DNA of 10,528 nt from a virus (IMGVR_UViG_2565956629_000002:1-10528); one strand, 5' to 3'. Shown: positions 1-7,557, counted from the first letter of the stretch. Program-made: numbers and translations. The notes: generated by a model not told the origin, from the letters alone.

Positions 1-63
1 ATTGAGTGGGAATGATTAATAGCTAACTCATAGCAAATCATTTCTATTCAGACACTAACTCAA

Positions 64-94
64 CCCTCTGTTTTTACAGAGGGTTTTTGTTTTT
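64..94 (+). terminator. Rho-independent terminator of an upstream (off-window) plus-strand transcript
   Basis: Stem CCCTCTG (64-70), loop TTTTTA, stem CAGAGGG (77-83), followed by TTTTTGTTTTT. The reverse strand has no T-tract after the hairpin, so it looks unidirectional. Confidence 0.5.
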
Positions 95-143
95 ATGTAT
101 TCATTTCTATTCACTCTACACCATATTTTTCGGCGGTACAGGT

Positions 144-178
144 GACGGTATTACCTTAAAGGTATACTCTCATACCGT
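144..178. promoter_or_regulatory. Nested inverted repeats upstream of int, including an operator-like TTACC-N5-GGTAt site (151-165)
   Basis: GACGGTAT (144-151) and ATACCGTC (171-178) form a perfect 8-bp inverted repeat. Inside it, TTACCttaaaGGTAt matches the operator motif found in the immunity region with one mismatch. Sits about 30 bp upstream of the int start. Confidence 0.3.
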
Positions 179-207
179 CATGAAAATGGTTTCTATACGG
201 GTGAATT

Positions 208-1458
208 GTGCTTACCGATACAAAATTAAAAAACCTCAAGCCGCAGGACAAACTGTACAAGGTCTCCGATCGTGACGGGCTGTATGTAGCTGTGCTTACG
301 TCAGGCACGGTCTCGTTTCGCTACGACTACCGTATCAACGGTCGCCGCGAAACGCTGGTAATCGGGCAGTATGGGCGTGACGGTATCAGCCTGGCAGAAG
401 CGCGAGAAGAACTGATTGCTGCAAAGAAGCTGCTTAAAGCAGGCCAGTCACCGGCTGCGGCTAAACGTGACGGTATCAAAAAGATTCGTGGTGCCGAGAC
501 GTTTGCGGTACATACCGACAGTTATATGAAACACGTCATCCTGGCTGACAGTACCCGCGCAATGAAACAGGCGGTGATCGACCGTGACATACTTCCGGTT
601 CTTGGCAATAAAATGATGGCTGAAATTACCACATCGATGGTTCGTGATTTGTGTGACCGGATTGTCGAACGCGGTGGCCGGGCAACAGCAGTGCAGGCCA
701 GGGAGATCATCAGTAGCGTATACCGTCACGCCAATGACCGTGGTCATGGTTTGTTTAATCCTGCGGCTGACATTAAACCTTCGTCTATCGCCATATTTAA
801 ACCAAGAGAGCGAACACTGACACCAGAAGAAATTGGCCTGTTCTTCCGCACGCTGGATGCCATTGGTGCTATGGGCACTATGAAAATGGCTTTAAAGCTG
901 GTGCTTATCACTATGGTTCGTAAAGGCGAATTCACCAACGCAACGTGGGATGAAATAGATTTTAAAAAATGGACATGGACCATTCCTTCAGACCGCATGA
1001 AGGGAAGCCGGGCGCACGTTATTTACCTGCCTAAACAGGCTCAGGATATATTGGTCGGATTGCAGATGTGCGCTGGTGGAAGTGAATATCTGGTTCCTGG
1101 TCGTTACAATTTCCGGAAGCCATTATCTAATGCCGCGCTGAACTCTCTGATCGACAGAACGGTGAAAATAATAAATGAAGATGGTGAGCATATTCAGGGC
1201 TTCACCGTACACGATATGCGCCGTACAGCCAGTACATTGTTGCATGAGGCTGGTTATCCTTCAGACTGGATTGAAAAGGCTCTGGCACATGAGCAGAAAG
1301 GTGTGCGCGCCGTATATAACAAAGCGGAATACGCCAGACAGCGCGCCTACATGTTGCAGCAGTGGGCCGATATGATTGATTCCTGGATTGACGGGGAGCA
1401 TACGGATCTGATTCCGTTCTCCCCGTCGAAGTTTGAGAAGTGGATGGCGGGGGAATAA
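208..1458 (+). CDS. int: Tyrosine site-specific integrase (P4-like phage integrase family)
   Basis: 416-aa ORF with a GTG start at 208. N-terminus MLTDTKLKNLKP...DGLYV...FRYDYRINGRRE is typical of the P4-type integrase arm-binding domain. C-terminal catalytic signature includes HDMRRT (H-x-x-R) and VRAVYNKAEY (catalytic Tyr), plus the conserved WADMID tail. Confidence 0.93.
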   Translation: MLTDTKLKNLKPQDKLYKVSDRDGLYVAVLTSGTVSFRYDYRINGRRETLVIGQYGRDGISLAEAREELIAAKKLLKAGQSPAAAKRDGIKKIRGAETFAVHTDSYMKHVILADSTRAMKQAVIDRDILPVLGNKMMAEITTSMVRDLCDRIVERGGRATAVQAREIISSVYRHANDRGHGLFNPAADIKPSSIAIFKPRERTLTPEEIGLFFRTLDAIGAMGTMKMALKLVLITMVRKGEFTNATWDEIDFKKWTWTIPSDRMKGSRAHVIYLPKQAQDILVGLQMCAGGSEYLVPGRYNFRKPLSNAALNSLIDRTVKIINEDGEHIQGFTVHDMRRTASTLLHEAGYPSDWIEKALAHEQKGVRAVYNKAEYARQRAYMLQQWADMIDSWIDGEHTDLIPFSPSKFEKWMAGE

Positions 1459-1461
1459 CGT

Positions 1462-1656
1462 TTAATTATTCTGCTGATTTTCTTCCATCTCGGCTTCTGC
1501 TGCCAGTGATTCAATTTTATCTGTGAATATTGCTGACAGTGTTGCAAATTCAGCATCAGTGACAGCGGGAATTGGAACAAACCTGATCCCGCTGTGTGCA
1601 AGCATGTTTGCAGTTTCAAGGCATTTCCTTAAATCTGCTGGTGATGCCCTGTTCAT
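1462..1656 (-). CDS. Small hypothetical protein (64 aa) with acidic C-terminal tail, last gene of the cargo cassette
   Basis: ATG at 1656-1654 overlaps the methyltransferase stop (ATGA overlap). GGGAG lies 8 nt upstream. Protein MNRASPADLRKCLETANMLAHSG...AEAEMEENQQNN. The longer 104-aa track ORF (start 1776) would overlap the MTase out of frame and is disfavoured. Stop is 3 nt from the int stop. Confidence 0.4.
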   Translation of the reverse strand: MNRASPADLRKCLETANMLAHSGIRFVPIPAVTDAEFATLSAIFTDKIESLAAEAEMEENQQNN

Positions 1657-2300
1657 GCTGCACGCTCCCGCCCCTGGTTGTCTGTTGGTGACAGCGGAGC
1701 ATTGCTGAATGCATTTGTTAATCCGGCAATATACAACGCGTATCCAGGGTGTAGTTGCACTGCTGGGTCTTCGCACTGATTACCCCAAACATCGAAGCCA
1801 TGAGACGTTTGGCGGGCGAACAGTTCAATGCGAGAAACATCGCCTAACAATTGCACAAGTTTTTCACGAACGACATCTGGTTTTCTTGAATGCTCAAGCC
1901 GCGGTGCGGTAAATGACTGAACGATACCTGCATTAATGCGCGGAGGTAGTTTTCCCTTTACCGCAAACAGGCAATCTTCACTGTTGGCGCGAGTCATGTG
2001 TCCCATCCCCATAACCAGTTTATCTGGTTGTCGACTACCACATTTTATCCACGTGAAGCCCTTCATGGTCATCAGACGAAATCCCCAGGCTTCAACAACT
2101 TTTAGTGCTTCGAGTGGTTGTGTTGGCACCCACCACATGGCCAACAGACAGTTTTCATCGGCCAAATCCCACACAGGAAGGCGGCAGATATCCAGCACAC
2201 TCATAACCGGATATTTAAAACCGGCACCGCGATTACCATCTGCGGCTTTGTCCCGGTATACCCAGGGTGGATCTGCATAGATTAGCGTGTATTTTTTCAT
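1653..2300 (-). CDS. MT-A70 family N6-adenine DNA methyltransferase (215 aa)
   Basis: Start ATG at 2300 (internal Met of the track ORF) with GGGAG 7 nt upstream. MKKYTLIYADPPWVY carries the DPPW catalytic motif close to the N-terminus, as in MT-A70-type enzymes. ELFARQTSHGFDVWGNQ near the C-terminus is also typical. Start overlaps the stop of the upstream DndB-like gene (ATGA). Confidence 0.85.
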   Translation of the reverse strand: MKKYTLIYADPPWVYRDKAADGNRGAGFKYPVMSVLDICRLPVWDLADENCLLAMWWVPTQPLEALKVVEAWGFRLMTMKGFTWIKCGSRQPDKLVMGMGHMTRANSEDCLFAVKGKLPPRINAGIVQSFTAPRLEHSRKPDVVREKLVQLLGDVSRIELFARQTSHGFDVWGNQCEDPAVQLHPGYALYIAGLTNAFSNAPLSPTDNQGRERAA

Positions 2301-3364
2301 TGTTCTGCTCCCAGACTTCCTTTGGTAAAGGCTTGTATCAGCCTGTTTGCTGCCGCTTTCTGTGCTGCTACATTGGCAATAACTGATAGTTTTTCCTGGC
2401 TTGCTTTCGTGCAGATCCCAACCCAATTATCCATTAGGAAAAAATTCTCTCTTTCTGCGAAGTCAGTATTTGCACATAATGTTTCAATCATTGAAATTAT
2501 TTCTTTTATTGAGTGATTAACCATCATTTGCTGAACAGCATAGCCAAAAGCGTTAATCATCACTGCATGAAACTGGATATATTCTCTTTTGTATTCTGAT
2601 TGCTTTGTACCATGGCGAATTGCTTCTAGTTGTGTAAGACATAACCATGATTCCCATACTGACTCGATGTTACCAATTTCTAGTTTTTTCCCATTATGAA
2701 TACAAAATTTTGATGTTGAATCACTTAATGCTTTGAAACTCACCCACATGTTTGACTTTGACGGAACAACGTTGTGCTCGAAGTCAGTGACTTCTGCAAA
2801 AGTGTCATGTTGCGACAGGAAAGACACCATTTCTTGGGCAACATCGTTTCGTCCGTCATACGCCATATTAATTGCTGCAGATGGTTTTGAAACATTATTA
2901 TTAATGTCAGAAAAGAACTGCTGACGCGCCTTCAAAGGAAGGTTATGCGTAAGCATAAGAGGAATCATAATTGTTTCGCCATAATTACGGCAGAACTCAG
3001 CTAATCCTGCAGCACGATGCTGTCCATCAAATAATTTTATTTCTGCATCCATAGGAAATCTAGCTAAACCGACATTAGTATTTCCAATCTCATGGAACTC
3101 TATTTCTGAGTTACAATTTCCGACCAATGGTGGAACAATAAATGGTTCCTTTTTCTCGTAAGCGTTGACTAAATATTGATAAAACTTTTTTACCCTGGTT
3201 GGATTAATTTCACGTTGAGAACGTTCAAGGGTACTTCCCGTATTGTCGGTTGCCAATACTCTCGATAGTGCTCTTGCTGGTACTGTCATCATAAGTATTA
3301 CAGTGCTTCCCTGCGTTCCTCGTGATGCGGGAAATTCAAAGAAATAATCGCCTACCTTGCTCAT
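2297..3364 (-). CDS. DndB-like DGQHR-domain protein (ParB/Srx-fold, DNA-modification-associated family)
   Basis: Contains the name-giving motif LFDGQHRAAGL and an N-terminal YFFEFPASRGTQG segment as in DndB/DGQHR proteins. Start placed at ATG 3364 (MSKVGDYFF, AGG about 7 nt upstream). An in-frame ATG at 3400 would add 12 N/Q-rich residues and is the alternative. Gene is visibly more AT-rich than its neighbours. Confidence 0.82.
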   Translation of the reverse strand: MSKVGDYFFEFPASRGTQGSTVILMMTVPARALSRVLATDNTGSTLERSQREINPTRVKKFYQYLVNAYEKKEPFIVPPLVGNCNSEIEFHEIGNTNVGLARFPMDAEIKLFDGQHRAAGLAEFCRNYGETIMIPLMLTHNLPLKARQQFFSDINNNVSKPSAAINMAYDGRNDVAQEMVSFLSQHDTFAEVTDFEHNVVPSKSNMWVSFKALSDSTSKFCIHNGKKLEIGNIESVWESWLCLTQLEAIRHGTKQSEYKREYIQFHAVMINAFGYAVQQMMVNHSIKEIISMIETLCANTDFAERENFFLMDNWVGICTKASQEKLSVIANVAAQKAAANRLIQAFTKGSLGAEQ

Positions 3365-3801: not shown

Positions 3802-4050
3802 TCATGCAGCGTTGCTCACAGGACGATATACACGTTGCTGAACAGGAGGCTTTTTACCCTGGAACTCTGCCGGGCTTGCTGCCTGACGTTCATCAAGCCA
3901 ACGCTCAACTTCGTCACGGTTCCATGCGCAGCGTTTGTCAGTGATATACCAGCGTTTAGGAAATTCACCTGCGCGCTCCATACGGTCGATAGTGCTCCAT
4001 GACAGTGGCACCACCGCCAGGAGTTCCTTCTTACCTAATGCACCTTTCAT
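3802..4050 (-). CDS. AlpA/Xis-family excisionase-like DNA-binding protein
   Basis: 82-aa protein with LLAVVPLSWSTIDRMERAGEFPKRWYITDKRCAWNRDEVERWL, the typical MerR-like winged-helix signature of AlpA-type prophage excisionases/regulators. RBS GAGAGGT 5-6 nt upstream of the ATG. Confidence 0.85.
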   Translation of the reverse strand: MKGALGKKELLAVVPLSWSTIDRMERAGEFPKRWYITDKRCAWNRDEVERWLDERQAASPAEFQGKKPPVQQRVYRPVSNAA

Positions 4051-6305: not shown

Positions 6306-6382
6306 TTACCGTTGAGGTAATAATTATGCGTATTTGGTTTGATGTCAATAGATATGAGTTAAAAAAATTACCCATAAGGTAA
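6306..6382. promoter_or_regulatory. OL-like operator pair: two perfect TTACC-N5-GGTAA palindromes flanking the pL-like promoter
   Basis: TTACCgttgaGGTAA (6306-6320) and TTACCcataaGGTAA (6368-6382), 62 bp centre to centre. Confidence 0.6.
6320..6348 (-). promoter_or_regulatory. pL-like early leftward promoter
   Basis: On the minus strand: TTGACA (complement of 6343-6348), 17-nt spacer, AATTAT abutting the 6306-6320 operator. The second operator lies 19 bp upstream of the -35. Confidence 0.45.
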
Positions 6383-6439: not shown

Positions 6440-7024
6440 TTATTGTTTGCTTCTTTCGTTCTGGCTGATGACAAATTCAATGTAACTTTCGATCTTTGCC
6501 TTCTCTGTTTCGGGTAACAATGCGTAGCGCGAGCGGTCATAGTTGATAGTCGCAGGGTCGTGCGGGTGAATCAGTAATTCATAGCCGTGACGCCCGAATG
6601 CGGATGCAACATTCTCCAGGGTGGAAATGGAAACGCTGACTTCATTGTTTAACAGGCGGCTGATTGTCACCTGGGCGACGCCGGATGCGCGGTGTAGTTT
6701 TCCCTGCGTTGAAAGGTCGCGGCTTTCGCTCATCCAGCGTTCCAGGTTGTGAGCCGCCAGCTGACCAATGTCGCTTGGGCCGACAGGCTGAAACCCCTCC
6801 TGAGAAAGCGAGCGATCGATATCAAGCCAGTTACGGGGTTTATTGGCGGCAGCTTCAATTTTTCGCGCAACCTGGTCGCCGATAACCTTCTTGCCAAGAG
6901 CCCAGCGGTTTACCAGATTTGCCTGAGTTCCAAGTTTTTCTGCCATCCGCGTCTGAACACCATTGAATTCACGGTCGATCAAGTCGTTGAGATTTTGCCT
7001 GCGGACGTCCTGGATACTTTTCAT
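6440..7024 (-). CDS. Prophage repressor-like protein with two HTH domains and no S24 peptidase domain
   Basis: 194 aa, transcribed divergently from the cro-like gene across an operator-rich region. Two HTH-like segments (QTRMAEKLGTQANLVNRWALGKK and LHRASGVAQVTISRLLNNEVSVS). No LexA-type Ala-Gly cleavage site or Ser/Lys peptidase module recognisable. Confidence 0.8.
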   Translation of the reverse strand: MKSIQDVRRQNLNDLIDREFNGVQTRMAEKLGTQANLVNRWALGKKVIGDQVARKIEAAANKPRNWLDIDRSLSQEGFQPVGPSDIGQLAAHNLERWMSESRDLSTQGKLHRASGVAQVTISRLLNNEVSVSISTLENVASAFGRHGYELLIHPHDPATINYDRSRYALLPETEKAKIESYIEFVISQNERSKQ

Positions 7025-7079: not shown

Positions 7080-7142
7080 TTACCCAACAGGTAAATGCAC
7101 CTCATAGGTAACTATCCTTGATTTTTGTTACCTTATGGGTGA
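7080..7142. promoter_or_regulatory. OR-like operator cluster between the repressor and cro-like genes
   Basis: TTACCcaacaGGTAA (7080-7094, perfect), gcACCtcataGGTAA (7097-7111, degenerate), TTACCttatgGGTgA (7128-7142, one mismatch). Confidence 0.6.
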
Positions 7143-7153
7143 ATATTTATTAT
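7125..7153 (+). promoter_or_regulatory. pR-like promoter for the cro-like gene
   Basis: TTGTTA (7125-7130), 17-nt spacer, TATTAT (7148-7153). The 7128-7142 operator overlaps the -35 and spacer. Confidence 0.35.
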
Positions 7154-7178
7154 CTGAAATAAATATCAGGCAATAGCT

Positions 7179-7409: not shown

Positions 7410-7431
7410 TATCCAGCTACAACCCTCTGTA

Positions 7432-7453
7432 GACCGCCACCCGGCGGTCTTTT
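7432..7453 (+). terminator. tR1-like rho-independent terminator after the cro-like gene
   Basis: Stem GACCGCC (7432-7438), loop ACCC, stem GGCGGTC (7443-7449), then TTTT (short T-tract). Confidence 0.5.
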
Positions 7454-7557
7454 CATATCTATTCGTACCTCAAAGGTAATAAAAAACCAAATCTGGTTGA
7501 TCAAATTTTCCAATTGTGCAAAATATCCAATATCAATAACAAAAAGAGGCGGAAAAA

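Follow-up and report, generated by a model that had tools for sequence, protein, structure and literature searches.

What function do the nested inverted repeats just upstream of an integrase gene serve? The question is raised by a 10,528-nucleotide stretch of viral DNA (IMGVR_UViG_2565956629_000002:1-10528; the whole stretch is called the window here), in which a 9-bp inverted repeat and an inner palindrome occupy positions 143-180, ahead of an integrase gene (int) that begins at 208. The window covers the left end of a prophage related to the podoviruses phiV10 and epsilon15, inserted at the 3' end of guaA in Escherichia coli. The reading favoured here, and considered fairly probable, is that positions 131-180 form a composite control region in the integrase-side (P') arm of the phage attachment site, where integrase sites enclose one operator for the phage repressor, Rep, over a probable int promoter. 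An earlier note on this DNA had proposed either an operator or a binding site for integrase or excisionase. Both proposals appear to be supported, for different parts of the structure: the operator corresponds to the inner palindrome and the integrase site to the outer arms.

Outer arms and the integrase

The computed results are the motifs with their statistics, conservation and positions relative to the attachment core and to int, together with the domains of Int and Rep. The outer inverted repeat is perfect, with 9-bp arms TGACGGTAT (143-151) and ATACCGTCA (172-180) separated by 20 nt. It had been described as an 8-bp repeat; the left arm reported for it (GACGGTAT, 144-151) is correct, but the right arm, placed at 171-178, really lies at 172-179, and the full repeat is 9 bp. 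The inner element TTACCTTAAAGGTAT has the sequence and coordinates (151-165) first given for it and includes a perfect palindrome, TACCTT-A-AAGGTA, at 152-164. It is not strictly inside the outer repeat, as had been stated, but shares T151 with the left outer arm and so abuts it. The geometry of either repeat is not beyond chance. Perfect 9-bp inverted repeats with a loop of at most 40 nt occur seven times in the window (1.9 ± 1.9 in dinucleotide shuffles), and 6+1+6 palindromes five times (2.9 ± 1.8 expected). The identity of the repeated words, unlike their geometry, is far beyond chance. The elements that define the region and the gene that follows it are:

131-139, plus strand: degenerate arm-type site CGGCGGTAC, with CGGTA invariant, 12 bp upstream of the 143 copy
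142-151, plus strand: predicted arm-type integrase site GTGACGGTAT, the left arm of the repeat, invariant in 17 of 17 aligned sequences
151-165, no strand assigned: operator-like palindrome TTACCTTAAAGGTAT, matching TTACC-N5-GGTAA at 14 of 15 positions
172-180, minus strand: predicted inverted arm-type site ATACCGTCA, the right arm of the repeat, with one mismatch to GTGACGGTAT
208-1458, plus strand: int, encoding a P4-type tyrosine integrase (PF13356 at residues 2-87, PF22022, PF00589)

Exact copies of the 10-mer GTGACGGTAT lie at 142, 377 and 467 on the plus strand and at 720 on the minus strand, and a copy with one mismatch lies at 172 on the minus strand. These five matches, at a tolerance of one mismatch, all fall within 600 bp (142-729), against an expectation of 0.35, and five were reached in none of 200 shuffles. 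The motif differs from the core sequence and is found on both sides of the core, as a pair in the P arm and at 131-139, 142-151 and 172-180 in the P' arm. The P-arm pair, seen at attR, consists of GTGACGGTAT and AACGGTAT, 12 bp apart and about 80 bp left of the core, and the same pair is present in the circular record pNADC1036guaAphage. The 12-bp tandem spacing is common to both arms, being repeated in the P' arm between the 131-139 site and the 143 copy. In the Klebsiella relatives BUCT711, KpST512 and Kpn13883 the 131-139 copy is a perfect TGACGGTAT. Seven free-phage attP regions all share CCGGTGACGGTATATAAAACGGTA, and the flanking sequence varies among them. Epsilon15 (AY150271.2) and phiV10 (DQ126339.2) have the same 17-bp core at the guaA 3' end, terminator, GTGACGGTAT copies and nested repeat as the window, and the epsilon15 record carries the predicted feature 'protein_bind: integrase' on the same 10-mer at the equivalents of -80, 142, 377 and 467.

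More distant relatives also have these words. A scan of species-representative genomes gave 47 loci with related integrases, of which 29, with 47-91% identity, were analysed. Their hosts range from Citrobacter to Chromobacterium, Rhodocyclaceae, Cupriavidus and Caulobacter, and the distant loci were viewed with 1.5-kb flanks, which stop short of their immunity regions. Among these relatives the density of ACGGTA sites is 14.3 per kb over the 260 nt that precede int and 0.45 per kb elsewhere, a 32-fold difference, and the consensus extended into the flanks is TGACGGTAW. An array typically has a tandem pair in direct orientation, a single inverted copy, and another direct copy close to the start codon; the inverted copy is at the equivalent place in distant relatives as well. 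Where the arrays are kept, residues 1-56 of Int, in the arm domain, are 66-88% identical, against 45-70% for residues 111-416. Integrase homologues with 30-39% identity in the arm domain have no such sites upstream of int. The presence of the motif follows the conservation of the Int arm domain across hosts, from Enterobacterales to Caulobacter. By these comparisons the outer arms, as copies of TGACGGTAW, are most likely arm-type integrase sites of the phage attachment site. The TGACGGTAW array is also a recognisable signature of an integrase clade that spans several bacterial classes and has many members at the guaA 3' end.

Pfam places an Arm-DNA-bind_3 domain (PF13356) at residues 2-87 of the integrase (E 4e-20), and the phiV10 annotation classes its integrase as P4-type (cd00801). 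Three further copies of the 10-mer lie inside the gene:

377-386, plus strand: intragenic GTGACGGTAT in codons R57-D58-G59-I60, an annotated integrase site in epsilon15
467-476, plus strand: intragenic GTGACGGTAT in codons R87-D88-G89-I90, an annotated integrase site in epsilon15
720-729, minus strand: intragenic inverted GTGACGGTAT, kept in some relatives only

All 17 diverse sequences have the same codons for G59 (GGT), G89 (GGT) and D58 (GAC). Each of the remaining seven invariant glycine columns uses three to four codons, with the commonest at 29-65% of the 17 sequences, and the other invariant aspartate codons vary too. This constraint on synonymous sites indicates selection on the DNA sequence itself for the 377 and 467 copies. 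The intragenic 10-mers lie 360-710 bp from the core, and their possible roles include an extended attP, autoregulatory looping or a roadblock.

Inner palindrome and the putative int promoter

The word in the inner palindrome matches an operator motif that recurs in the window, including the immunity region of this phage. Matches to TACCTTAAAGGTA with at most three mismatches number 16, against 1.8 expected. For TTACC-N5-GGTAA with at most one mismatch there are eight sites where 0.23 are expected, a count reached in none of 200 shuffles, and all eight lie between annotated genes. The repressor gene and the other predicted operators are:

6306-6382, no strand assigned: PL-region operator pair, TTACCGTTGAGGTAA (6306-6320) and TTACCCATAAGGTAA (6368-6382), 62 bp apart and downstream of the repressor gene
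6440-7024, minus strand: repressor, a homologue of Salmonella phage SPC32H Rep (PDB 5D50, E 2e-41; HTH_3)
7080-7142, no strand assigned: operators between the repressor and cro-like genes by motif match, at 7080-7094, 7097-7111 (GCACC..GGTAA) and 7128-7142
7465, no strand assigned: single operator-motif site after the cro-like gene, from the TTACC-N5-GGTAA scan
9361 and 9423, no strand assigned: operator-motif pair, 62 bp apart, before the DUF1064 gene (9441)

The PL-region pair flanks a minus-strand TTGACA -35 element for the leftward operon. The site at 7097-7111 has two mismatches, and the gap between the repressor and cro-like genes is 154 bp. The same operator layout, including the 62-bp pairs, is found in epsilon15, Tyrion, BUCT711, BUCT554 and PAT1, and each of these five has exactly one site upstream of int, always ending in GGTAT. 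The epsilon15 record marks ATTACC-N5-GGTAAT as repressor sites, again as predictions, in the PL region and elsewhere. In an alignment of 17 sequences from upstream of int, TTACC and GGTAT show no change and four of the five spacer positions vary; since invariant half-sites around a variable spacer are the footprint of a two-half-site operator, 151-165 may be read as an operator. TTACC follows TGACGGTAT directly only in the Uetakevirus group, to which this prophage belongs. The bases after TGACGGTA vary in distant relatives, and TTACC is therefore unlikely to be part of the integrase site. The inner palindrome is thus most likely a copy of the phage's own repressor operator, as predicted from these matches.

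The 62-bp pairs in the PL region and before 9441 are present in every relative examined. Seven more copies of the operator occur elsewhere in the prophage (L062 coordinates 1840, 1858, 5009, 21988, 23033, 23126 and 24247), most of them intergenic; late-region copies lie, for example, around a BRO-N (antirepressor-like) gene and before the tailspike gene. The spread of the operator suggests phage-wide silencing by Rep, beyond the control of a two-promoter switch. In the leader of the cro-like gene, just past the 7128 operator, two perfect 9-bp arms (ATATTTATT/AATAAATAT) form an inverted repeat around a 6-nt loop (7143-7166).

Because int is convergent with the leftward early operon and is cut off from upstream transcription by a terminator (62-85), it would need its own promoter within about 86-207. 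The features that bear on its expression are:

62-95, plus strand: phage-borne intrinsic terminator (stem 62-71/76-85, then a T-run), predicted to end guaA transcription in the lysogen
163-168, plus strand: -10-like hexamer TATACT of the putative int promoter, read from the sequence and alignments
199-204, plus strand: conserved Shine-Dalgarno-like GGGTGA for int, with a ribosome-binding site annotated correspondingly in the Tyrion record

TATACT is the only plausible -10 element in this interval, and the promoter itself is put forward from the sequence. The hexamer is TATAAT in epsilon15, and TATATT, TATATC or TATATG in three others. The best -35 element is GTGACG (142-147), inside the left integrase site and separated from TATACT by a 15-bp spacer. 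Other -35 candidates, judged by eye (TTCACT at 110-115, TTCATT at 100-105 and GGTACA at 135-140), have worse hexamers or impossible spacers. The right operator half overlaps TATACT, and the arm-type sites bracket that hexamer. If the promoter is real, the left integrase site would lie over the -35 element, the operator over the spacer and -10 element, and the inverted site over the start region. ACGGGTGAA is fully invariant in seven phages, and its final two bases vary in one of the 17 aligned sequences.

Several points weigh against this composite arrangement. For the integrase sites, the right arm (172-180) is less conserved, with mismatches in Tyrion, BUCT554, Klebsiella and others, and may be dispensable since it is imperfect in several relatives. 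The operator upstream of int is single and has no partner at ±62 bp, unlike the PL and 9441 pairs, and SPC32H Rep is reported to bind DNA when tetrameric, and the dimer to bind only weakly (PMC9638917). The operator half-sites are identical in all phages examined, so covariation between the repressor and the int-upstream site is uninformative. A scan of IMG/VR yielded only integrases at least 99% identical; most of these loci are truncated at the start of int, the operator regulon is the same in nearly all, and one locus with no operator site (L131) is also without the int-upstream region. The invariance of GGTAT could come partly from the -10 element, and that of TTACC partly from an extended integrase site. 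For the promoter, the spacer is 15 bp and the -35 element matches at four of six positions, TATATC or TATATG replaces TATACT in two relatives, and a standard sigma-70 consensus scan finds no promoter in 1-600, being silent on GTGACG/TATACT because of the 15-bp spacer. The literature found on the region contains no reports of binding, footprints or transcription starts.

The rival that survives best, itself unlikely, is one in which the integrase sites alone are functional, the palindrome is conserved through the -10 element and flanking integrase contacts, and int is controlled by Int and a directionality factor. There is a precedent in the KplE1 (CPS-53) prophage, where attL overlaps the intS promoter and intS is repressed both by IntS and by TorI, the directionality factor (Panis et al. 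2010, PMC2951348). The solitary site and the reported preference of Rep for a tetrameric state fit this rival. So do the last base of the site, which is off consensus in every relative, the overlap of GGTAT with TATACT, and the fact that a 6+1+6 palindrome is not rare by chance; more distant relatives (for example L024-L045) keep the integrase-site array and have no such palindrome. However, the chance of an operator with at most one mismatch in a 190-bp spacer is about 0.004 (from 0.23 expected per 10.5 kb), and the restriction of TTACC after TGACGGTAT to the Uetakevirus group places it outside the integrase site. Invariant half-sites with a variable spacer are what an operator predicts, and the same phage has other single operator copies, at 7465 and at several places in the late region.

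Far less probable is the binding of TGACGGTAW by an AlpA/Vis-like directionality factor or another accessory protein in place of the Int arm domain. The candidates for such a protein and its sites are:

38-50, plus strand: conserved 13-mer TCATTTCTATTCA, copy 1, in the P' arm and conserved in relatives
101-113, plus strand: conserved 13-mer TCATTTCTATTCA, copy 2, 63 bp from copy 1 and conserved in relatives
3802-4050, minus strand: AlpA/Vis-like small helix-turn-helix protein, a candidate recombination directionality factor (PF05930, E 3e-05)

An AlpA-family gene is thus present, and directionality-factor sites lie near the int promoter of KplE1 (PMC2951348). Those five TorI sites are all in attL, whereas TGACGGTAW is on both arms of attP, and its presence tracks the Int arm domain as set out above. 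An accessory factor would more plausibly bind the 13-mer at 38-50 and 101-113. In all, TCATNTCTATTCA has four matches in the window (0.36 expected), at 38-50, 101-113, 6345-6357 on the minus strand and 7453-7465, and is conserved in epsilon15, Tyrion and BUCT554. It could be a site for the AlpA-like directionality factor or another regulator. A reading of the 13-mer as an integration host factor site was set aside on inspection, as the consensus does not fit. The two P'-arm copies flank the terminator, the 6345-6357 copy overlaps the TTGACA -35 element, and the 7453-7465 copy abuts the 7465 operator. The AlpA-like gene is in the leftward operon and is not co-transcribed with int.

The least probable rival takes the inverted repeat as RNA: folded as a hairpin in the leader of int, it would be cleaved by RNase III or act on translation or stability in some other way. 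The epsilon15 record labels the nested repeat 'protein_bind RNaseIII, mRNA processing' over 39 nt (the equivalent of window 143-181) and leaves the int-upstream operator, the inverted 172-180 copy and the second P-arm copy unmarked. RNA from 135-190 folds at -16.1 kcal/mol (z = -2.4), a value equalled by three of 200 shuffles. The fold is moderately stable, with a stem of 10 + 5 bp and a 7-nt asymmetric interruption, which is short for an RNase III substrate. Rfam has no family over the repeat, where two sub-threshold matches have E about 0.7. With a -10 element at 163-168 the transcript would begin in the right arm and lack the left arm altogether. The same 9-10-mer is found unpaired, in direct orientation, across the core and inside int, and distant relatives keep the words as sequence and not as pairing, with loops of at least 30 nt. 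The hairpin is rejected for want of covariation: none of the 17 sequences (14 distinct) has a compensatory change, the left arm never varies, and the pair-breaking substitutions (six cells) and both wobble changes are all confined to the right arm.

Attachment core and integration site

The composite region of integrase sites and operator can be placed relative to the attachment core. The earlier note had considered this core not identifiable in the window and had put the prophage boundary probably at or left of position 1. The core is in fact identifiable, and lies at the very start of the window:

1-17, plus strand: attL core ATTGAGTGGGAATGATT, from the empty-site junction, the attR copy, the phage attP alignment and the precedent of phage ZX5

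The comparison with an empty site, which the same note had recommended, was run. Homology with prophage-free E. coli genomes ends at window position 17, the host junction, which places attL close to the repeats; beyond GAATGATT the K-12 sequence is unrelated to the window. The nested repeats are 125-165 bp from the core, in the int-side arm. The 17-mer ATTGAGTGGGAATGATT is repeated at attR (L062 29701-29717), 40.2 kb to the right of attL in the same prophage, and is followed there by the native guaA terminator and yfgI. It is invariant across seven phage attP sites. For vB_EcoP_ZX5, a 98%-identical phage, attB, attL and attR have been amplified and sequenced, giving the core attgagtgggaatgatt, and phiV10 and epsilon15 are stated to have the same core sequence (PMC9782041).

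Bases 1-15 of the window are the final five codons of guaA (…IEWE), with TGA at 13-15, and the remainder is the left end of the prophage. Over positions 1-1500 the nucleotide identity is 98% to phiV10 and 82% to epsilon15, which makes this a phiV10/epsilon15-like podovirus of the genus Uetakevirus. Several avian-pathogenic E. coli chromosomes are 100% identical to the window and are annotated there with guaA, a tyrosine integrase and a DUF1382 gene. The guaA part is matched by all 5,426 complete E. coli genomes. A tRNA or tmRNA target was considered and rejected: none is present, and the guaA 3' end is the target. The guaA 3' end (…GAGTGGGAATGA/TAA) also directly precedes many of the distant integrase relatives (L024-L045), in Pantoea, Morganella, Edwardsiella, Oceanimonas, Tolumonas, Methyloversatilis and Rhizobacter.

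The phage terminator is annotated as such in the phiV10 and epsilon15 records. Its 10-bp stem (AACCCTCTGT/ACAGAGGGTT) is identical in the phage (62-85) and in the native guaA terminator (L003 1941-1966; L062 29737-29765), and the loop alone differs, TTTT in one and TACT in the other. Integration displaces the native terminator to attR, and the phage copy sits just past the core. More distant relatives have different terminators at the equivalent place. CAACCCTCTGT is found again at window 7421-7431.

Genes for an MT-A70 family methyltransferase and a DGQHR-domain protein (1653-3364, minus strand) lie between int and the PerC-like and AlpA-like genes. They are variable cargo relative to epsilon15 and pNADC1036guaAphage.

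Known systems and possible regulatory meaning

KplE1 is the closest tested precedent for the arrangement; its P'1 arm site overlaps the -10 element (PMC2951348). In both prophages int is beside attL and transcribed away from the core, and the gene for the directionality factor is elsewhere and not co-transcribed (PMC2951348). KplE1 differs in integrating into a tRNA gene and in having an unrelated arm-site motif (PMC2951348). The abstract and two further sections of that report make no mention of an immunity-repressor operator in the KplE1 int promoter (PMC2951348). Here, in contrast, a copy of the operator lies between the arm sites, from which we infer regulation by Rep.

Phage P4 has its attP immediately upstream of int, and P4 Int and Vis negatively regulate int. 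The likeness to the present prophage is in the P4-type integrase, the attP just upstream of int, and an encoded small protein of the AlpA/Vis family; the difference is in the target, which here is the end of a protein-coding gene and not a tRNA. In lambda, PI is activated by CII, and the transcript from PL is subject to sib retroregulation. The present system resembles lambda in that int appears tied to the lysis-lysogeny circuitry and that the heterobivalent integrase has arm-type sites. Unlike in lambda, int here cannot be read from PL because it is convergent with the leftward early operon, and the proposed link is direct repression through an operator and not CII activation or RNase III-dependent sib control. 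The integrase of the GIsul2 island has the same GAGTGGGA target at the guaA 3' end, and the island carries an alpA gene (PMC9376610). GIsul2 is a resistance genomic island, not a phage, and arm sites and an int promoter are not described for it (PMC9376610).

In the scheme that follows, the assignment of proteins to motifs, the int promoter and the sense in which regulation runs are all things that we infer. The sites at 143-151, 172-180 and 131-139 would be bound by the N-terminal domain of the P4-type integrase encoded downstream. In the lysogen, Rep on the operator at 151-165 would hold int off. On infection of a naive cell, or on inactivation or loss of Rep, the int promoter would fire, and newly made Int on the arm sites would assemble a recombination complex with the core at 1-17. 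Int on the arm sites may also damp its own promoter, as KplE1 IntS and P4 Int do.

A more elaborate version can be offered tentatively. The int promoter may be a three-input attachment-site switch, in which a single Rep operator is wedged between opposed arm-type sites and repressor occupancy and intasome assembly are exclusive or coupled, with the selected intragenic sites (377, 467 and 720), perhaps through looping or as a roadblock, stretching the attP/autoregulatory region to some 800 bp. If true, such a switch would answer a problem of KplE1-type modules, namely how int is induced from outside the early operon.

The kinds of element involved are textbook ones (arm-type sites, an operator and an int promoter embedded in attL), and there is no new component mechanism. 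The Rep-type operator between arm sites and the synonymous constraint on the intragenic copies appear to be unannotated, a statement that does not extend to the primary literature on epsilon15 and SPC32H. The analysis defines a full predicted attP for the phiV10/epsilon15 group, made up of the core (1-17), two sites in the P arm, three in the P' arm and the intragenic copies, which would be useful for integration vectors and reporter phages, and it corrects the 'RNase III' label on the repeat in the epsilon15 record. If the scheme is confirmed, an int gene beside attL and outside the early operons would be tied to the lysis-lysogeny decision through an operator in its own promoter, with integrase autoregulation through the arm sites layered upon that operator control.

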